Of a stretch of 64,000 nucleotides of DNA, positions 1,179 to 56,559 are shown piece by piece. The translations under genes were made by a program, and so were the position numbers. Below the pieces are notes generated by a model, which had not been told where the DNA came from, ran no database searches, and saw only the letters and a program-made list of their open reading frames with translations. Positions within the stretch are counted from its first letter, which is position 1. The number at the start of each line of letters is the position of its first letter. The stretch is from Escherichia phage vB_Eco_ZCEC15, in sequence record PQ871103.1; one strand, written 5' to 3'.

Positions 1179-1361
1179 TTATCCTCGGCAATCCACTTCA
1201 CATACTTTCTTGTCATCAATGAAAGCTTTAACTAATGCTTTATTAACTTCAGCGTATTGATTAGTAGCCCATTGAACGTCATCTTTCATCATTGTGATTT
1301 CTTTAGTAAACATGCTTTCGTTCTTAAACCACCCCATAAAAACTACCTTTACCAATTCCAT
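1179..1361 (-). CDS. dmd: Dmd (discriminator of mRNA degradation; RnlA/LsoA antitoxin), 60 aa
   Basis: 60-aa ORF immediately downstream of gene 41, as in T4. Confidence 0.8.
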   Translation of the reverse strand: MELVKVVFMGWFKNESMFTKEITMMKDDVQWATNQYAEVNKALVKAFIDDKKVCEVDCRG

Positions 1362-1419
1362 AACAATCTCCTCATTTAACCAACAAGACTACTATACCAT
1401 AGTCTTGTTGGCTTGTAAA

Positions 1420-2847
1420 CTAAAATTTTAATTCATTCGCTAAAGCATCTAACTGAGCTCGAGCGGATTCGTTTCTTTGATAGCGATTCTGTTCAGCCTG
1501 AATCTGCTGTGAACCTGCTACTTCGTTCACTTCAGTTGGAGTAGAATCTTGTTCAATTTCTACCCATTTCTGATTTCCTTTTTGAACACCCATCAAAAAC
1601 TTATTCCATTTATTCTTATCACCGTATCGTGATTTGATTTGCTTAATGAGTTGTTGTTCAGCAGCTGCTAGCTCCTCGGTTTCAATGACCGCAAGCATAA
1701 AATCGGCTGTTGCTGGAAGGCCGGCAGATTCTGCAATATCGCTCATGTTAACATCAGAAGAGTCCCAAGCTTGTTTACCAACCTGTGCTGCGGTCCAAAG
1801 AACAGTTTCGGTTTCAACAGCCAGAGCACGCAATTCCTCTGCGATAGCTTTAACAGTTGTGTAACTATTTTCTGAATAAACTCTAATGCGACAAGATTTA
1901 CAAATACCCAGATAGTCAACAATAATGATTGTTGGAACAAAATTCTTCTTGAGCTTCAATTCATTCAAGAGAGACCTGAATGTATTAGCGTCTGCTCCAC
2001 CAGTAGGATACTGTTTAACGATTAAACGGCCGAGAGTAGATTTCTCACGCCATTTTTCCATTTTTCCTTTATACTCAGCGTAAGAAATATGCCCATCATC
2101 AATGTCATCAAGAGAAACATCAAGCATATTAGCGTCAATACGCTTAGCACAGACTTCTTCTGCCATTTCCATGGAAATGTAAAGAACATTATGTCCGAGC
2201 TGCAAATAATCTGCTGCCAATGAACACAGACCTAATGACTTACCGACGTTAACACCAGCCATTAAAACGTTCAGTGTTCCAGTTTCAGCTCCGCCTTTAG
2301 TAATTTTATTTAGAATTTTGAGTCTAAATGGAACCTTACGAGCTTTATTCATATAAGATAGCCAACGTGCTTCGTAGTCATCCATCCAATCATGACCAAC
2401 GTAACTATCAAATGAAATTGATAATGCTTGGCGCATGATGTCAGGAATAGCACCAACATCTGGCATTTTCTTATTTCGTTTTTCCGGAGGAAGCTCAGCA
2501 TTAGTTTGAATTTCAATTATTTTAGACGTAGCATTAAACATCGCCCTTTGCTGAACATATTTTTCTGTTTCTTTTACTAACCAGCTGTGGTCTTCTGGCG
2601 AATCGGCCAGTTTTGAAATAAGTGTTTTTACACCAGAATATTCTGTTTCAGTAAATGAACTATTTTCTAATGCAACATTTAACGCATTAATAGATGGAAC
2701 GCTATGGTATTCATTAACATGAGATTTAATTAATTTGAATGTATTTTTAGCTGGACCACTTTCAAAATATTCTGAATCCATATATGGCCAAACTTTTGAA
2801 AAATAAGCTTGATCAAATATGAGATGAGAAAGAATAATTTCTACCAC
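1420..2847 (-). CDS. 41: replicative DNA helicase gp41 (DnaB family), 475 aa
   Basis: Walker A GVNVGKS; length and sequence match T4 gp41. Confidence 0.95.
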   Translation of the reverse strand: MVEIILSHLIFDQAYFSKVWPYMDSEYFESGPAKNTFKLIKSHVNEYHSVPSINALNVALENSSFTETEYSGVKTLISKLADSPEDHSWLVKETEKYVQQRAMFNATSKIIEIQTNAELPPEKRNKKMPDVGAIPDIMRQALSISFDSYVGHDWMDDYEARWLSYMNKARKVPFRLKILNKITKGGAETGTLNVLMAGVNVGKSLGLCSLAADYLQLGHNVLYISMEMAEEVCAKRIDANMLDVSLDDIDDGHISYAEYKGKMEKWREKSTLGRLIVKQYPTGGADANTFRSLLNELKLKKNFVPTIIIVDYLGICKSCRIRVYSENSYTTVKAIAEELRALAVETETVLWTAAQVGKQAWDSSDVNMSDIAESAGLPATADFMLAVIETEELAAAEQQLIKQIKSRYGDKNKWNKFLMGVQKGNQKWVEIEQDSTPTEVNEVAGSQQIQAEQNRYQRNESARAQLDALANELKF

Positions 2848-5295: not shown

Positions 5296-5933
5296 TTAAG
5301 TGCCTTACATTTGTCAAAATGGTATCTTGTCATATTTGGCCCACGTCCTTTTAGTCCGCAATGCGGACATATTTTTTCTATCAAATTATGAGGTTTTCCT
5401 TTACGATTTTTAGACATCGTTTCTTTAATTATTTTAGCTTTTTCTGCGCCAAAAATTTCTTCATAAGTTTTACCAGAATTTTCCTTTGCTCGATTTATAA
5501 TTCCATATGCCTGCTCATTTTTACCATACATTGGATTACCTTCGCCTTTCATTCTTTTAGAATGATCAGGACGCTTGATTCCACGAAAGGCATTTCCGCA
5601 CTTATATCTTTCTTCTGGAGATAGTTTTTTACCGTACATTCCATTTAATTTGCCTGGAAAACTTCCTCCCCATGCTTCATTCTTTAAATTATATGAATCC
5701 GGACAATTAGCAGCATCTAAACAAGTTAAAATAATTTCTTCAACCTGTCTAAACATTGGTCCTTCATATAATATTTCTTTATTAAAGGATTTTATTCCAT
5801 ATTTCTTTTTAGCATGTTGCCAAACTACACCCGAACCATCATAATTTGGGTTGTGACCATCATGACTTCCTATATACCACTTTTTAGTTTTAGGATGTTT
5901 ATACTTATAAACATGTGGCACATTTACTTCCAT
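5292..5933 (-). CDS. GIY-YIG homing endonuclease (seg-like), 213 aa, C-terminal zinc finger
   Basis: VYKY...WYIGS GIY-YIG motif, NUMOD3-like G-K-x-S/P-E repeats, C-terminal CPHCG...RYHFDKC. Confidence 0.75.
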   Translation of the reverse strand: MEVNVPHVYKYKHPKTKKWYIGSHDGHNPNYDGSGVVWQHAKKKYGIKSFNKEILYEGPMFRQVEEIILTCLDAANCPDSYNLKNEAWGGSFPGKLNGMYGKKLSPEERYKCGNAFRGIKRPDHSKRMKGEGNPMYGKNEQAYGIINRAKENSGKTYEEIFGAEKAKIIKETMSKNRKGKPHNLIEKICPHCGLKGRGPNMTRYHFDKCKALK

Positions 5934-34367: not shown

Positions 34368-35354
34368 TTATTTCAGAAGAGTAACCTCAGCGATTTCTTC
34401 CCAACCGTTTTTGTCGGTCATAATAAAGTCAGCAAGATAAAGAGCAGTACGCAGTGAAACATTGCGTAAACGATTAACATTAACTTTCATCCATGATAAT
34501 GCTTTATAAGTTTCTTCATCAGAAAGACCACGCTTTTGCATCATGTCAGTTGAAAGAATAACATCTTCAACCCTGACCATAATTTCTTCATTAGTGTGAA
34601 CACCCAAATCTAAATAAACCGAGCGGGACACTAATGCTTGTAAATGTGGAGCAAGTTTAGTACCACGGTCTAATTCGCGGTCAATGTCAACGTTTGTGAT
34701 AAAAACAATCGTTCCTTTAAATTCAAACTCACGCTCAATGCCTTTTTCTTCTAAGTAAGAAGACGCAGTGCTCCAGCAGACTTTACGGGTCTCTCCAGTG
34801 TCCAGAGCGGCTTTTAGAAGATTAAGAATGTCCATATCAGAGAAAACATCCACATCATCAATCAAAAGGACAGAATTCTCTTCACGATTATTCCAAAGCT
34901 GCTCATAAAGACCAATACCAGAGATTTTACCATTAATGCTTTTATATTCAATGTATCCAATATCATTTGCTTTATTTAAAGCTTTATCTAAAGAATACGT
35001 TTTACCAATACCTGCTGCACCAGAGATAATCAATGAACGAATATTTCCATTAATAATACCATTCGTCATCATTCCCATAACATTAAATCTTTTATTAATG
35101 CGGGTTTTCATATCTTCATATGATTCTTTAACTTCTTCAACTTTTACACCATCATATGAAATATCTGATTTGTAAACCCAAACACCGCGACGTTTACCGT
35201 CAATTTCAACAAAAACTTTACCATCTCCTTGTGCATCTACCGGAGCATTATCTGGGAACCATTCGCCTAAGAGCTCAAAAGTTCCAGAGATTTCTTTACC
35301 GAAGTAGATACCCTTATTGATAGTTACAGTTTTCATTTTATTCTCCAATTTCAC
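34368..35354 (-). CDS. P-loop NTPase, 328 aa (Walker A GAAGIGKT, Walker B LLIDDVD)
   Basis: Motifs read directly from translation. Confidence 0.65.
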   Translation of the reverse strand: MKLENKMKTVTINKGIYFGKEISGTFELLGEWFPDNAPVDAQGDGKVFVEIDGKRRGVWVYKSDISYDGVKVEEVKESYEDMKTRINKRFNVMGMMTNGIINGNIRSLIISGAAGIGKTYSLDKALNKANDIGYIEYKSINGKISGIGLYEQLWNNREENSVLLIDDVDVFSDMDILNLLKAALDTGETRKVCWSTASSYLEEKGIEREFEFKGTIVFITNVDIDRELDRGTKLAPHLQALVSRSVYLDLGVHTNEEIMVRVEDVILSTDMMQKRGLSDEETYKALSWMKVNVNRLRNVSLRTALYLADFIMTDKNGWEEIAEVTLLK

Positions 35355-35405
35355 ATTTGTTTTGATAGGGTAATAGTATCACACTACTACCCTACTGTAA
35401 ACAAT

Positions 35406-35669
35406 TTATTTTAGTGTTTGCCAAATTTTTACTGCTTCGCGACGAGATACTTCTACAGCTCCAAGTTCTACGGCTTTTTGACGTCGGCGAGCATGTAAGT
35501 CATAATGTTTAATGCGTTTATCTTGAAACCAAGAACGTTTCATTCCTATTGCTTCTGCCATTTCATGGAGCTCTTCAATATCTCCATCAGTGAACATATG
35601 ACAATTTTTAGTTAGATGACCGCGAAGTTTCCATCCATGATTCATTAAAACATCTACGTAAACTGTCAT
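35406..35669 (-). CDS. small protein, 87 aa, DUF4031-like
   Basis: Motif pattern GMKRSWFQ...HYDL...GA resembles the DUF4031 family as I recall it; stop overlaps upstream gene by 4 nt. Confidence 0.5.
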   Translation of the reverse strand: MTVYVDVLMNHGWKLRGHLTKNCHMFTDGDIEELHEMAEAIGMKRSWFQDKRIKHYDLHARRRQKAVELGAVEVSRREAVKIWQTLK

Positions 35670-39520: not shown

Positions 39521-39589
39521 GATGTTCTCCTCTTTATCCGATGGTTGTATAGTATCACGGCTCAAATTGAAAGTAAACTGGTAAAATGA

Positions 39590-43720: not shown

Positions 43721-43779
43721 GTTATTCTCCTCTTAACTGATAGAAAAATTATACCACAGTCAAGAGGAAAAGTAAACAG

Positions 43780-44906: not shown

Positions 44907-45287
44907 TCAATTAGAAAATAAATTTATCCAAGATTGTTCTTTAATTAAAAATGGCTCAGAATCGTATGCCATTAAACTTTGGGTGATTAGTCCTTTAAAA
45001 GGTCCATCAATAAATTCCATGGTAAAATATGGAATTTTATTCATTAATCTTGCATTAGGAGCAGTACACAAAACTCTGCATCCTTTGAATACACCTTTTT
45101 GCAATTTGTATTGCTTAGGATAAAATTCGCTCAAGACGTTGTTATTTGCCAAAATTTCAAAATGATTCACCAATTTATTTTTAATAGTTTTTGGCGAAAA
45201 ATAAAGATATTCGAAAAGCTGTGTGTCTGTCATCATTGCATTCCGATTACGAAAAACTGCGGACGAGTAATACCACCAATGCAACAT
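44907..45287 (-). CDS. hypothetical protein, 126 aa (vs.7 position)
   Basis: ORF track. Confidence 0.55.
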   Translation of the reverse strand: MLHWWYYSSAVFRNRNAMMTDTQLFEYLYFSPKTIKNKLVNHFEILANNNVLSEFYPKQYKLQKGVFKGCRVLCTAPNARLMNKIPYFTMEFIDGPFKGLITQSLMAYDSEPFLIKEQSWINLFSN

Positions 45288-45823
45288 TTACTATTACAGC
45301 AGTGTTGCACAGTTTCAATATGAATATCGTAAATTTTATCCATATCAGGAGATTTAACAGGCTCATCGATTATATACAAAATTCGCGAAAGAGATAAACC
45401 TCTGAACTTGCTTCCTTTATTACCGATAAAACTACGGACAGAATCAGTAAATAAACGGAATCGAATATCATCGCTAGAATAACGAGAAAATTCTTTTTTA
45501 ATGTGGTCCGCAGAAATTTTAGCGTAAGATGAAGTATTAGAAAGAACAATAACTGTTCCACCGTCATACAACCAATTAGCAGCAAAGTTAGTCACAGCAA
45601 TTGATTTACCGGATTGACGTCCACCATCTAGTCGAAGTGTGCAGTATTCTTTAAATAAATGTGGCGAATCAGGTACATAAAATCCACTATTACAAATTTC
45701 TTCTACTCTAGCATCAGAATGGTGTGTAAAAGCATTCATCAGGGATAGATAAGGACCAGTTAAAAATGTTCTCATTTTGTTATCTCTAAATTTGGGCCAT
45801 TCCATGGCGCATGAATTTTCCAT
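45233..45823 (-). CDS. P-loop-containing hypothetical protein, 196 aa (vs.8 position)
   Basis: GGRQSGKS Walker-A-like motif. Confidence 0.55.
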   Translation of the reverse strand: MENSCAMEWPKFRDNKMRTFLTGPYLSLMNAFTHHSDARVEEICNSGFYVPDSPHLFKEYCTLRLDGGRQSGKSIAVTNFAANWLYDGGTVIVLSNTSSYAKISADHIKKEFSRYSSDDIRFRLFTDSVRSFIGNKGSKFRGLSLSRILYIIDEPVKSPDMDKIYDIHIETVQHCCNSKCCIGGITRPQFFVIGMQ

Positions 45824-45920: not shown

Positions 45921-46337
45921 TTAAATGTAAATATTTTTGCCGTAATACTTATACCAGTGTGGCTTCATTAAAATTTTTTCATCGAGTCGTTGTTGACTCA
46001 ACTTAATAGCTGATTTGCATGGATTATAATCATTTTTCCATTCTACTGGAATATCGCTGATGTCAGGAACTTCAGTATCTTTTATACTGAACCCGCGTTT
46101 TAAGCATTCCGTTATAATGTCCGATTGACGCTTTCGCAAAAATTCTAACTTATCATAAAAGAACGTAACATGACCAGAACCTAAAATAAACTCGGAAGAT
46201 ATTTTAAAATCTTTAACCCGCTTACCATTTGCTACATGTTTACGAACTATACCAAAAACACGCGGCAATTCACGGTATTCTGCGATTAAATGTTGATCAG
46301 CAAGTTCAGATACTAAAGTCAAATTAATACGAGTCAT
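45921..46337 (-). CDS. denV: endonuclease V DenV (pyrimidine-dimer glycosylase), 138 aa
   Basis: N-terminus [17 protein letters not shown] and length match T4 DenV with substitutions. Confidence 0.9.
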
Positions 46338-46351
46338 TTTATCCCTCCAAG

Positions 46352-46390
46352 CAATTGTGAATATACTATCACAATTCTAGGAGAAAGTAA
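46352..46390 (-). promoter_or_regulatory. early promoter with dyad ATTGTGA/TCACAAT flanking the -10 region, upstream of denV
   Basis: GTTTAC -35, inverted repeat around -10, GGAGGG SD before denV ATG. Confidence 0.45.
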
Positions 46391-46396
46391 ACAACT

Positions 46397-46927
<531 letters not shown>

Positions 46928-50581: not shown

Positions 50582-50601
50582 GGAAGAACAGGGATGTAAA
50601 C
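50572..50601 (-). promoter_or_regulatory. early promoter (duplicate of 7742..7771)
   Basis: About 80 bp near-identical to 7717..7800. Confidence 0.55.
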
Positions 50602-53865: not shown

Positions 53866-54264
53866 TCAGCCTTCATCAACAATAGTGTGAGTATTAGCAT
53901 TTACAATTTGCCACCAATCAAAGCGATTAGAATCCATCGGTTTGTTTTCATTTTCTTTGATAATGTCACGGAGTTCATCTTCAGAGAATGCTTTAGCAAT
54001 TAAATCGGTATACCCACCACGGGGATAATAATTATCACCTGCAAACAAAAGGAAATTTACCTTCCCGGAAGCAACATATGCTTCCTTAGGATACTTGTTT
54101 CCTGCGTGGTCAACCACTTCAATATAACGGTAAGGAATATCGGTTCTTTCAACCCATTGCCATGCCGCCGCAGGGGAATCGAAAGCATCTACACCTAAAC
54201 GATTATCTTCATCTTTAGACGGATTATTTTCGTAATCCGCATATACATAATATTCAACGTTCAT
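53866..54264 (-). CDS. hypothetical protein, 132 aa
   Basis: ORF track. Confidence 0.55.
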   Translation of the reverse strand: MNVEYYVYADYENNPSKDEDNRLGVDAFDSPAAAWQWVERTDIPYRYIEVVDHAGNKYPKEAYVASGKVNFLLFAGDNYYPRGGYTDLIAKAFSEDELRDIIKENENKPMDSNRFDWWQIVNANTHTIVDEG

Positions 54265-54449
54265 TATTCACCTTTAGAAATTTTATCCATAACAATAGCA
54301 ATTAAACCAATTAAAAATGCTACTACAAGTGAAAACACATTTTCTGCTGTAGTCAATAATCCACATATAAATCCAACAAACATTGAAAAACTAAAAGCGG
54401 AAGCAGAAATTGCAATAGCAACATTTCGAATTAATTCACAACGTTTCAT
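54264..54449 (-). CDS. small membrane protein, 61 aa
   Basis: Hydrophobic throughout. Confidence 0.5.
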   Translation of the reverse strand: MKRCELIRNVAIAISASAFSFSMFVGFICGLLTTAENVFSLVVAFLIGLIAIVMDKISKGE

Positions 54450-54464
54450 TTTATTCTCCTCAGT

Positions 54465-54495
54465 AGTAAATAGGGTAATAGTATCACTACCCTAT
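54465..54495 (-). promoter_or_regulatory. promoter-early stem-loop (PeSL-like) module: dyad AGGGTA/TACCCT around -10, GTTTAC -35
   Basis: Inverted repeat flanking atagtatcac core; compare 54763 and 55093. Confidence 0.5.
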
Positions 54496-54507
54496 CTAAA
54501 AGTAAAC

Positions 54508-54741
54508 TTATTTTTTACGAAAAATTGATTTATTTTCTGCTGCCCATTTTTCAATAACTGCAGCAGGACCAGTAACAACAATTTTATCACCGTAATCTTC
54601 TGCGGCGAGTTGACCGAAATTATCTAATGCATCACGAAGAACTCCATGAGGCATTTCACCCATTTTATCTTTCTTGCCAGTGTAAATAAACTCAACTTTT
54701 ACATCAGCAGTTTCAGCAATAAATTCTTGGTAAGTTTTCAT
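54508..54741 (-). CDS. internal-protein-like protein (about 77 aa from MKTYQEFIAE)
   Basis: N-terminus MKTYQEFIAE resembles the T4 internal-protein capsid-targeting sequence. Confidence 0.6.
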   Translation of the reverse strand: MKTYQEFIAETADVKVEFIYTGKKDKMGEMPHGVLRDALDNFGQLAAEDYGDKIVVTGPAAVIEKWAAENKSIFRKK

Positions 54742-54762
54742 TTTGATTTCCATTTGGTTTTG

Positions 54763-54795
54763 TTTTGATAGGGTAATAGTATCACAACTAAAACC
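54763..54795 (-). promoter_or_regulatory. PeSL-like module: dyad ATAGGGT/ACCCTAT around -10
   Basis: As above with different arm sequence. Confidence 0.5.
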
Positions 54796-54817
54796 CTATG
54801 TAAACAACTTTGTGAAA

Positions 54818-55075
54818 TTATTTTAAATCTTCTAATCGTTTCTTCATCTTAGAACCATTTTTAGCAATTTCTCCTGCATCGGAGCATAATGCTAAAAGTG
54901 CTTTAACTTTAGTTTGGTCTCCTTTAAAAGATGAAGGATCGACCGCAGCAGCAAGTTCTTTAATACGAGAGAAAAGACGCTCAGCTTCAGCTAAAGCCAT
55001 TCCAAGCTTTACTTCCATACCGTGGGAAGATTCAGTGATAGTAGTTTTTGTAGCAAACTCTTTGAAAGTTTTCAT
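54818..55075 (-). CDS. internal-protein-like protein, 85 aa, N-terminal MKTFKEFATK
   Basis: CTS-like N-terminus; flanked by PeSL-like modules. Confidence 0.55.
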   Translation of the reverse strand: MKTFKEFATKTTITESSHGMEVKLGMALAEAERLFSRIKELAAAVDPSSFKGDQTKVKALLALCSDAGEIAKNGSKMKKRLEDLK

Positions 55076-55092
55076 TTTTATTTTCCTAATTA

Positions 55093-55125
55093 ATTTTGAT
55101 GAGGTAATAGTATCACTACCTCATC
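55093..55125 (-). promoter_or_regulatory. PeSL-like module: dyad GATGAGGTA/TACCTCATC around -10
   Basis: 9-bp arms flanking atagtatcac; GTTTAC -35 at about 55122-55127. Confidence 0.5.
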
Positions 55126-55148
55126 AGTATGTAAACAACTTTGTGAAA

Positions 55149-55833
<685 letters not shown>

Positions 55834-55834
<1 letters not shown>

Positions 55835-56559
55835 TATAGTACCTTTAGTGTATTTTTAATTTTAGAAAAAAGTTCTTCAAGAGAACCATCGTTTGTAATT
55901 ACTAAATCGCCATCACGAATTGGCAATCCAGCTTCTGTAATATGTGTATCATTGGATTTTTGACCAGGACGAACTACATGAATTACTGTAGCACCCATCG
56001 CCCTAGCCGCATCCATTTCATGATCTTGACGGGTATCAGGAACGATATAATAATCATAACCTGAGTTAAATTTATCAAGATAATCTAAAGCAAATAATTT
56101 TACCCAGTACATGCGGTCGAAGTTATTAACAATCAAATCCGTACCTAGGGCTTGCATCAGACGACGGACTGACCATTGATCTTCAATATTATTTATAACG
56201 TCAATAATCTTGTTAAATGCTACGGAATTAACTGATTCTTGTCCTTCGTCATCAAAAACAAACACACCTTTAATTGGGCTTTTACCATTAAGATAGCAAA
56301 ATGCTTGTTCCATAATCGTGATTACTTCTAATTTAGTTAGATTTAAATTAGTCTCACGATCATAGTCAATTCCTTCAAACTCTTTACGAGTTAAGCAAGG
56401 ATAGTCGGTATTTGCTGCAAATACTCCCCATGCATAAGCCAATGCATCCTTAATAGGACCAGCAAGTTGGTATTTAACTGCAGAATAATTGCTCATGATA
56501 AAATCTGCAGTAGTATCTTTTCCACTACGCTTTACACCGCTTAAAAAGATTAGTTTCAT
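55834..56559 (-). CDS. 1: dNMP kinase gp1, 241 aa
   Basis: P-loop GVKRSGKDT; matches T4 gp1. Confidence 0.95.

Follow-up and report, generated by a model that had tools for sequence, protein, structure and literature searches.

Genes and promoter modules of the 57B/ipI locus

The segment between positions 54460 and 55140 of the 64,000-nucleotide stretch of DNA analysed here (the window) is the 57B/internal-protein (ipI) locus of a T4-like phage (Tequatrovirus), read on the minus strand, as are all the genes discussed at this locus. From 54000 to 56000 the window is 100% identical to Escherichia phage vB_EcoM_OE5505 (Tequatrovirus), and matches to this interval were found in 823 phage records. 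Colinearity with OE5505 being incomplete, this genome was used for junction comparisons only and not for annotating the window. In transcription order, gene 1 (dNMP kinase, 56559-55834) comes first, followed by 57A (55834-55604) and by 57B (55149..55607), the conserved upstream anchor of the locus, which is described in related records as Acb1 or as RNA-ligase-like. Two internal-protein cassettes come next. The first (54818..55075) encodes a protein of 85 aa (IP85) whose N-terminus is MKTFKEFATK and which matches the internal head protein family phrog_3499 (PHROG, E = 1.2e-49). The second (54508..54741) encodes 77 aa from MKTYQEFIAE (IP77; 81 aa if the start is at 54753) and matches the internal virion protein family phrog_8111 (PHROG, E = 1.2e-52). 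Both proteins bear the capsid-targeting leader MKT(F/Y)(K/Q)EF and, judged by their PHROG matches and this leader, both cassettes are genuine internal-protein genes. The locus is closed by a 61 aa ORF (54264..54449) homologous to T4 trna.4 (phrog_1692). The family matches, the leader and the trna.4 homologue thus identify the classical ipI locus of T-even phages.

Each of the three intergenic gaps of the locus (73, 64 and 58 nt) is wholly filled by one module: M1 between 57B and IP85 (55076..55148), M2 between IP85 and IP77 (54754..54817) and M3 between IP77 and the trna.4-like ORF (54450..54507). On the minus strand the order is the same in every module, namely the upstream stop codon, an A/T-rich tract, GTTTAC(A/T), exactly 17 nt, a TACTAT preceded by TG, and about 25-35 nt with a Shine-Dalgarno (SD) sequence that lead to the ATG. 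The tract TAAAATAATTTCACAAAGTTG upstream of M1 and M2 contains about 80% A+T and begins at the stop codon. The TG-extended -10 box, GTGATACTAT, has atagtatcac as its plus-strand complement, and the -35 box GTTTAC reads GTAAAC on that strand. GTTTAC(A/T)-N17-TACTAT with TG at -15/-14 is found in M1, M2, M3 and in a fourth module at 35.4 kb; the modules' UP/-35/TGn/-10 layout corresponds to that of T4 early promoters. A promoter-site scan flags M1 and M2 as TG-extended promoter-like. By inspection, M1 is identical at every base to the T4 57B-ipI intergenic region, which holds the ipI promoter, and the T4 ipI-trna.4 spacer is a hybrid, its 5' part being as in M2 and its 3' part as in M3. From the consensus and the identity to the T4 ipI upstream region, we infer that the modules function as promoters.

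An inverted repeat is superimposed on this layout: the spacer pairs with the bases directly 3' of the -10 box, leaving the -10 box in the loop. The -35 and -10 boxes of M1 lie at 55136-55131 (GTTTAC) and 55112-55107 (TG-extended TACTAT), and its SD AGGAAA precedes the ATG at 55075; on the plus strand M1 reads GATGAGGTA (55098-55106), core ATAGTATCAC (55107-55116), TACCTCATC (55117-55125) and GTAAAC (55131-55136). M2 has its -35 box at 54805-54800 and its -10 box at 54781-54776, with ATAGGGT (54768-54774), core (54776-54785), ACCCTAT (54793-54799) and GTAAAC (54800-54805) on the plus strand; an outer stem, in which the -35 region is paired with CAAAAC, gives it a longer dyad. In M3 the boxes lie at 54507-54502 and 54483-54478, and the plus strand reads ATAGGGTA (54470-54477), core (54478-54487), TACCCTAT (54488-54495) and GTAAAC (54502-54507). 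The SD of M3, GGAGAATAAAA, fits the strong RegB-site consensus GGAGRAYARAA. When folded as RNA, M1, M2 and M3 reach minimum free energies (MFE) of -17.4, -18.1 and -16.9 kcal/mol (z -3.56, -3.79 and -3.31, respectively), and G-U pairs extend the stems of M1 and M3 into the core, to 13-14 bp with a 4-nt loop.

Related modules lie elsewhere on the minus strand. The one at 35.4 kb (35337..35405), a dispersed copy of the internal-protein type, precedes an ATPase-like gene of 322 aa (34368-35336) in which no internal-protein leader or homology was found with PHROG. Its plus-strand anatomy is TAGGGTA (35366-35372), core (35373-35382) and TACCCTA (35388-35394), and it folds at -20.9 kcal/mol (z -3.87). 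At this position the window has an extra 87-aa ORF and the internal-protein-type module, and OE5505 a canonical terminator and a different early promoter. The module at 46.3 kb (46338..46396) separates e (lysozyme) from denV, where T4 has its second internal-protein locus; in the window this locus is empty. Its inner arms are AATTGTGA (46353-46360) and TCACAATT (46369-46376), its -10 box is TAGTAT, and its core contains one mismatch; the dyad is formed in another register that uses the TCAC of the core, an outer stem spans the SD of denV, and the fold reaches -18.3 kcal/mol (z -3.72). A sixth core copy, an exact one at 39549, has no dyad.

The earlier note had placed five modules at 54465, 54763, 55093, 35371 and 46352, and all of them were located. 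The core that it took to be common to them is exact in the first four and carries a mismatch in the last. It had described GTTTAC as following each module; the plus strand has GTAAAC there, GTTTAC being the -35 box of the minus strand. That each module precedes a small gene holds for the internal-protein cassettes and the trna.4-like ORF, and fails at 35371 (322-aa gene); the module at 46352 precedes denV. Likewise, M1-M3 do flank internal-protein cassettes, as attested by PHROG and the leader; the gene behind 35371 does not encode an internal protein.

Pairing around the -10 box

Allowing up to one mismatch, the core occurs 20 times, compared with 4.7 +/- 2.1 times in shuffled sequences. The dyads had been expected to stand out from shuffled intergenic sequence, and they did: the five intergenic folds range from -16.9 to -20.9 kcal/mol (z -3.3 to -3.9), and not one of 200 dinucleotide shuffles was as stable. 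We then considered all intergenic early promoters found on the minus strand by a scan of the whole window (n=17), folding for each a unit made of the spacer, the -10 box and 25 nt, and calling a hairpin when the MFE was -12 kcal/mol or lower. Hairpins were called at 11 of the 17 promoters and in 4% of random 48-mers. The mean MFE of the 17 promoters was -12.5 kcal/mol, versus -6.7 +/- 0.6 kcal/mol when the 3' flanks were swapped among promoters (the best of 500 permutations gave -9.5 kcal/mol) and -5.4 +/- 0.5 kcal/mol when the flanks were shuffled. Intergenic regions with an early promoter had a mean z of -3.8, versus -1.5 for the other 22 without one. These results indicate that the dyads are real and beyond chance, and that the hairpin is a general property of this phage's early promoters (those of dmd, regB and denV among them) rather than special to internal-protein loci.

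The arms had been described as differing between modules while remaining complementary. This is the case for M1 and for the denV module, whose arms are unrelated to those of the other modules and lie in a different register. However, three of the five modules (M2, M3 and the 35.4 kb module, at 54763, 54465 and 35371) have identical arms, and must therefore be regarded as copies and not as independent evidence. The sole homologous compensatory change inside the window is that of AGG/CCT to GAG/CTC in M1, which involves two adjacent pairs. The argument from compensatory change to selection for the dyad thus has two pairs to stand on in the window itself, and was borne out by 20 variants of the trna.4 promoter in related phages.

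These variants come from a set of 36 related loci found via 57B. The orthologous trna.4 promoter is present there in 20 distinct variants, with at least five families of self-complementary arms: ATAGGGTA/TACCCTAT; AGGGCTAT/ATAGCCCT, with a C-G to T-A variant AGGGTTAT/ATAACCCT; GGGCT..TAG/CTA..AGCCC; GTGTAGGGATA/TATCCCTACAC; GGTAGGACTA/TAGTCCTACC; and CTCCATTTGG/CCAAATGGAG. All 20 variants fold (mean -15.5 kcal/mol, weakest -10.7), whereas chimeras joining the 5' half of one variant to the 3' half of another reach -8.8 +/- 2.6, with 1.4% of them attaining the native mean. RNAalifold did not find a consensus structure for the 20 orthologous trna.4 promoters because three registers coexist among them, with the dyad axis at -2.5, +0.5 and about +5 relative to the -10 box. 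It was replaced by the comparison of native and chimeric folds and by a count of pairs in a fixed register. In the commonest register, 65.8% of the cells of the ungapped alignment are paired and two-sided changes are seen in 6 of 13 pairs. The fixed-register covariation score is 0.217, versus 0.148 +/- 0.014 in shuffles, none of 500 being as high, and every slid register scores lower. Most strong stems have their axis on the -10 box. Of 48 such stems, 23 place it half a base inside the hexamer and 8 place it 2.5 nt upstream. We conclude that pairing is under selection; it is to other promoters and other phages that the strong covariation evidence is owed, that within the window being thinner.

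The strand on which pairing operates was less easily read. The sense strand folds at -11.4 versus -9.8 for the antisense strand, with 92 versus 50 G-U pairs, but random windows show nearly the same bias (-5.7 versus -4.8). The strand excess hardly exceeds this background, and the G-U pairs therefore do not prove that the RNA strand is the one that folds.

Cassette exchange between related phages

Cassette content at these junctions, which the earlier note had proposed to compare, does vary between related phages. Across the 36 loci, the number of internal-protein genes in the 57B-trna.4 interval ranges from 0 to 5, and their sequences are diverse. In the window, M1 and M2 lie within a 71-nt direct repeat (86% identity, spacing 331 nt) that runs from the last codons of the upstream gene (..DLK) and its stop through the promoter, and so includes the last codons and the stop of 57B. 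Together with the shared leader codons the homology amounts to about 113 nt, and the part from the stop codon to the -35 box is identical in both copies. Locus L034 encodes a 57B protein with 100% identity and lacks exactly the IP85 cassette, the endpoints of the deletion falling inside the 113-nt repeat. In locus L033 a single internal protein of 102 aa replaces both cassettes; the edges of the replacement are the leader on the left and, on the right, the start of M3 at the first base past the IP77 stop. At the second locus, e is followed in the window by denV without an internal-protein gene, and in OE5505 an internal protein of 157 aa takes the place of denV behind the same promoter/hairpin module. 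In these three comparisons, the breakpoints map to the modules, inside them or at their edges, or to the shared N-terminal leader.

Natural chimeric modules, with the 5' arm of one family and the 3' arm of another, were also found. Those at L027:5806 (ATAGGGTA..TACCTCAT) and L018:5847 (AGGGCTAT..TACCTCAT) have mismatched arms, and another, L018:6178, has a duplicated core. The chimeras of L027 and L018 suggest crossovers within the conserved -10 core, which would yield modules of this kind. The survival of such broken dyads in some phages shows that the hairpin can be dispensed with. Nor does every cassette boundary need a module: in other phages, many internal-protein genes overlap the stop codon of the gene before them, and no module lies in between.

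The hairpin in RNA and its relation to known elements

A scan of 54200-55700 for terminators returned no site combining a hairpin with a U-tract. The module hairpins are followed by CAAAA or ACTAC, and their reading as intrinsic (Rho-independent) terminators was rejected, efficient intrinsic termination being doubtful without a U-tract. A search with Rfam covariance models returned only a chance snoRNA match (E = 0.66), far below the gathering score. Textbook terminators do sit just upstream of two promoters, the one at 39577, which contains the dyad-less core copy at 39549, and the one that OE5505 has at 35.4 kb; this hints that hairpin and terminator might be interchangeable devices.

Predicted accessibility of the SD-AUG region was compared between read-through RNA and RNA started at the module's own promoter. 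It is the same for M1 in both contexts (0.91 and 0.91; 0.67 with the upstream sequence shuffled) and nearly so for the 35.4 kb module (0.85 versus 0.84), so that in read-through RNA the ribosome site of these two modules is 0.84-0.91 unpaired, versus 0.65-0.67 when the upstream part is shuffled. Over 71 modules, accessibility in read-through RNA is 0.52, versus 0.525 in the shuffled-upstream control (p = 0.92). At denV (46391), regB (43776) and 33960 it falls from 0.73-0.88 to 0.19-0.33 in read-through RNA (controls 0.36-0.53), and in several trna.4 orthologues the spacer is paired with GGAG. General masking of the SD in read-through RNA was thus rejected for the whole set and for the internal-protein modules, and kept for denV, regB, 33960 and some orthologues.

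We consider it likely that the modules unite an early promoter, a hairpin conserved in its pairing that punctuates read-through RNA, and repeats that enable cassette exchange by general recombination. Each is a composite regulatory module of about 58-73 bp carrying a predicted strong T4 early promoter with the SD and the ATG of the next gene, in which the stretches free of promoter elements (the spacer, and the segment reaching from the -10 box to about +5) are held complementary, placing the -10 box in a hairpin loop. Transcription from sigma-70 promoters starts 6-8 nt past the -10 box; the module's own transcript would therefore start within the final few bases of the 3' arm, too late to form the hairpin. 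With the start site so predicted, the hairpin would form only in RNA reading through from upstream. It would most likely act there as a self-contained punctuation element, possibly a weak attenuator, a barrier to 3' decay of the upstream message, or both, sequestering the promoter sequence and keeping the ribosome site of the next gene open. The fixed register may reflect economy, as in a gap of 60-70 nt only the spacer and the stretch past the -10 box would be free. The modules and the shared leader offer 70-110 bp of repeated homology, by which general recombination could delete, insert or swap cassettes.

It is unlikely that the dyad instead acts in DNA, as a cruciform or single-strand hairpin that would be a target for recombination and drive cassette mobility. 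The crossovers of the L027 and L018 chimeras do fall in the conserved loop/core, and Arbiol 2010 (PMC2839356) left 'homologous or site-specific recombination' open and located the crossover of one mini-circle in the loop. However, no identical stretch is longer than the crossover zone itself, so that plain homology suffices, and the endpoints of the IP85 deletion lie in the 113-nt repeat, whose identical part from the stop to the -35 box is the likeliest crossover zone. The arm sequences are not conserved, and no site for a sequence-specific enzyme is evident. The Watson-Crick arms measure only 7-9 bp, with loops of 8-18 nt, and longer stems need G-T pairs; short arms and large loops are poor for cruciform extrusion. 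Neither do we favour a translational switch of the e/soc/49/I-TevI type, in which the SD would be masked in read-through RNA and translation would proceed only from RNA started at the embedded promoter. The design is established for T4 late promoters (PMC3014915), and the fall in accessibility at denV, regB and 33960, like the spacer-GGAG pairing of several trna.4 orthologues, is what it would predict. It is nonetheless quite improbable as an account of the modules, accessibility being unchanged at M1 and the 35.4 kb module and showing no shift over the 71 modules.

The position of the dyad, centred on the -10 box, is typical of an operator and might suggest an inverted repeat recognised by a dimeric DNA-binding regulator of early promoters. 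Yet arms that differ entirely between orthologous promoters while retaining their complementarity, the use of three registers and the want of a common half-site beyond the promoter core make this very improbable. Least credible of all is that the dyads reflect chance, composition or inherited copies, with pairing unselected: three of the five modules do share identical arms and the -10 core is partly self-complementary through G-U pairs, but the flank-swap and flank-shuffle controls, the dinucleotide shuffles, the unrelated arm families found at a single promoter and the two-sided changes all contradict it.

The punctuating hairpin might be extended to a more general proposal, which we put forward tentatively and with some doubt: a hairpin centred on the -10 box, present at 11 of the 17 promoters of the window, could be a design rule of T-even early promoters, in two kinds, one a compact insulator that takes up the promoter sequence in read-through RNA and leaves the SD open (internal-protein modules, dmd) and the other a long-range hairpin masking it (denV, regB, some trna.4 alleles). 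If so, denV, regB and some trna.4 alleles would be translated only from their own early promoter, and the SD-masking early hairpins would be the early-gene counterpart of the e/soc/49 late switch. The arm families at one promoter, the broken-stem chimeras and the two SD behaviours provide ready material for testing the hairpin against homology. Internal proteins are injected to counter restriction; Ip1 and Ip2 block GmrSD-type enzymes (PMC12373910). The modules serve as joints for the exchange of such proteins, a role already documented in the literature and of relevance to host-range evolution and to the engineering of T4-type phages.

Promoters placed inside hairpins are familiar in T4, where McPheeters 1986 reportedly described translational control of this kind. 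At e, soc, 49 and I-TevI the promoter lies inside the hairpin and transcripts started there lack the 5' arm (reviewed in PMC3014915). The denV and regB promoters of the window resemble this design. The difference is that the known cases are late promoters whose hairpins mask the SD, whereas the internal-protein modules are early promoters that leave it open. The account of T4 early 'uber' promoters in Hinton 2010 (PMC2988021) describes an UP/-35/TGn/-10 organisation, and the window shares with it GTTTAC(A/T), the 17-nt spacer, the TG-extended TA(C/T)(T/A)AT and the A/T-rich upstream tract; a -10 dyad, present at 11 of the 17 promoters here, goes unmentioned in the review text.

The loci themselves have a longer history. 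Repoila 1994 reportedly found that the internal-protein ORFs of T-even phages are flanked on both sides by homologous stretches longer than 70 bp that include signals for transcription and translation, and is said to have described at 57B/ipI and e-denV internal-protein genes with a conserved N-terminal leader that vary in number and identity. The window represents another allele of these loci, with two internal-protein genes at the one and none at the other, and nothing substantive differs. PeSLs were defined in RB49 and phi1, with promoter activity shown, in the account given by Arbiol 2010 (PMC2839356), where Repoila 1994 is credited with 'PeSL-like sequences' at two T-even internal-protein loci; the elements of these loci are treated there as analogues, and not as homologues, with weaker, A/T-richer stems. 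The same source reports a reporter test in which one stem-loop, a G/C-rich one from RB49, was active as a terminator. That stem-loop is the subject of the only experimental terminator test in the PeSL literature.

The reading of the modules as PeSL-type elements, advanced in the earlier note, agrees with their sequence features and with the term PeSL-like used for T-even elements in Arbiol 2010 (PMC2839356). In their sequence, the modules possess all the features that define a PeSL at that level: an AT-rich tract, -35 and -10 boxes with a 17-nt spacer, a stem-loop that overlaps the -10 box (as in one published subclass), and an SD with an ATG. Like PeSLs, they lie in hyperplastic regions, beside indels or replacements between close relatives, and they fit the consensus TTTACW-N17-TAYWAT given in the T4/PST catalogue of Comeau 2014 (PMC4122927). 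They differ in that their stems are A/T-richer than the polyG/polyC stems of RB49 and phi1, and in that their hairpins lack a U-tract. According to a legend in Comeau 2014 (PMC4122927), moreover, the stem-loops of T4/PST lie 'just upstream' of the promoter; those described here bracket the -10 box. The class of element is thus already known from Repoila 1994, Arbiol 2010 and Comeau 2014, and is recognised here at its type locus.

Cassette boundaries and apparent module exchange between related phages

The promoter/hairpin module, an intergenic early promoter whose -10 box lies in the loop of a hairpin, is present at some cassette boundaries, not at every one. Many related phages (loci L004, L009, L013, L018 and L020-L030) lack an intergenic module between 57B and the first internal-protein gene: the latter starts at position 5456, overlapping the stop codon of 57B. 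At the second T4 internal-protein locus, the e-denV interval, the window phage carries no internal-protein gene (45921-46891, minus strand). In the corresponding stretch of the related Tequatrovirus OE5505 (44975-45540 in OE5505), the place of denV is taken by a 157-aa internal protein preceded by the same module as that found at denV in the window, and a denV-type Shine-Dalgarno (SD) persists at this site as a degenerate remnant.

Compared with OE5505, the window contains an additional module of the internal-protein type (35337-35405, minus strand) and an additional 87-aa ORF (35406-35669, minus strand). In OE5505 (34556-34673 in OE5505), a strong canonical terminator, GGGAGCCttcgGGCTCCCTTTTTTT, lies ahead of the same 322-aa gene, the early promoter of which differs from that of the window. 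The difference at 35.4 kb looks like the swap of a whole regulatory module.

Other early promoters and a core copy in 57A

Repeated early-promoter modules on the minus strand at 50600, 23137, 7770 and 33960 form a second family, with the sequence ..attccctaaaa..ttttcacaaa(a/g)(c/t)tgTTTACA..tggTACTATacaactatcaactac..; most of them have no -10-centred hairpin. The strongest dyad of the window, CCAACAAGACTA/TAGTCTTGTTGG (a stem of 12 perfect bp that extensions lengthen to 15; -21.8 kcal/mol), belongs to the dmd promoter (1360-1420, minus strand), where the 3' arm of the dyad and the -10 box overlap. Part of the -10 core recurs within the coding sequence of 57A as TAATAGTATCGCCAGTGATACC (55666-55687), an imperfect palindrome; this copy might be what remains of an internal promoter, or it might have arisen by chance.

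Predicted Shine-Dalgarno masking and a RegB consensus match

The regB early promoter (43721-43779, minus strand) lies within a 15-bp hairpin of -20.7 kcal/mol, and the SD of regB, AAGAGGAG, falls under the 3' arm of this hairpin. This SD would be masked in read-through RNA (predicted accessibility 0.19, versus 0.73 in RNA from the embedded promoter), and its GGAG would be hidden there from RegB itself. The SD region of the trna.4-like ORF, GGAGAATAAAA (54449-54459, minus strand), fits perfectly the strong RegB cleavage consensus, GGAGRAYARAA, given in PMC3014915.
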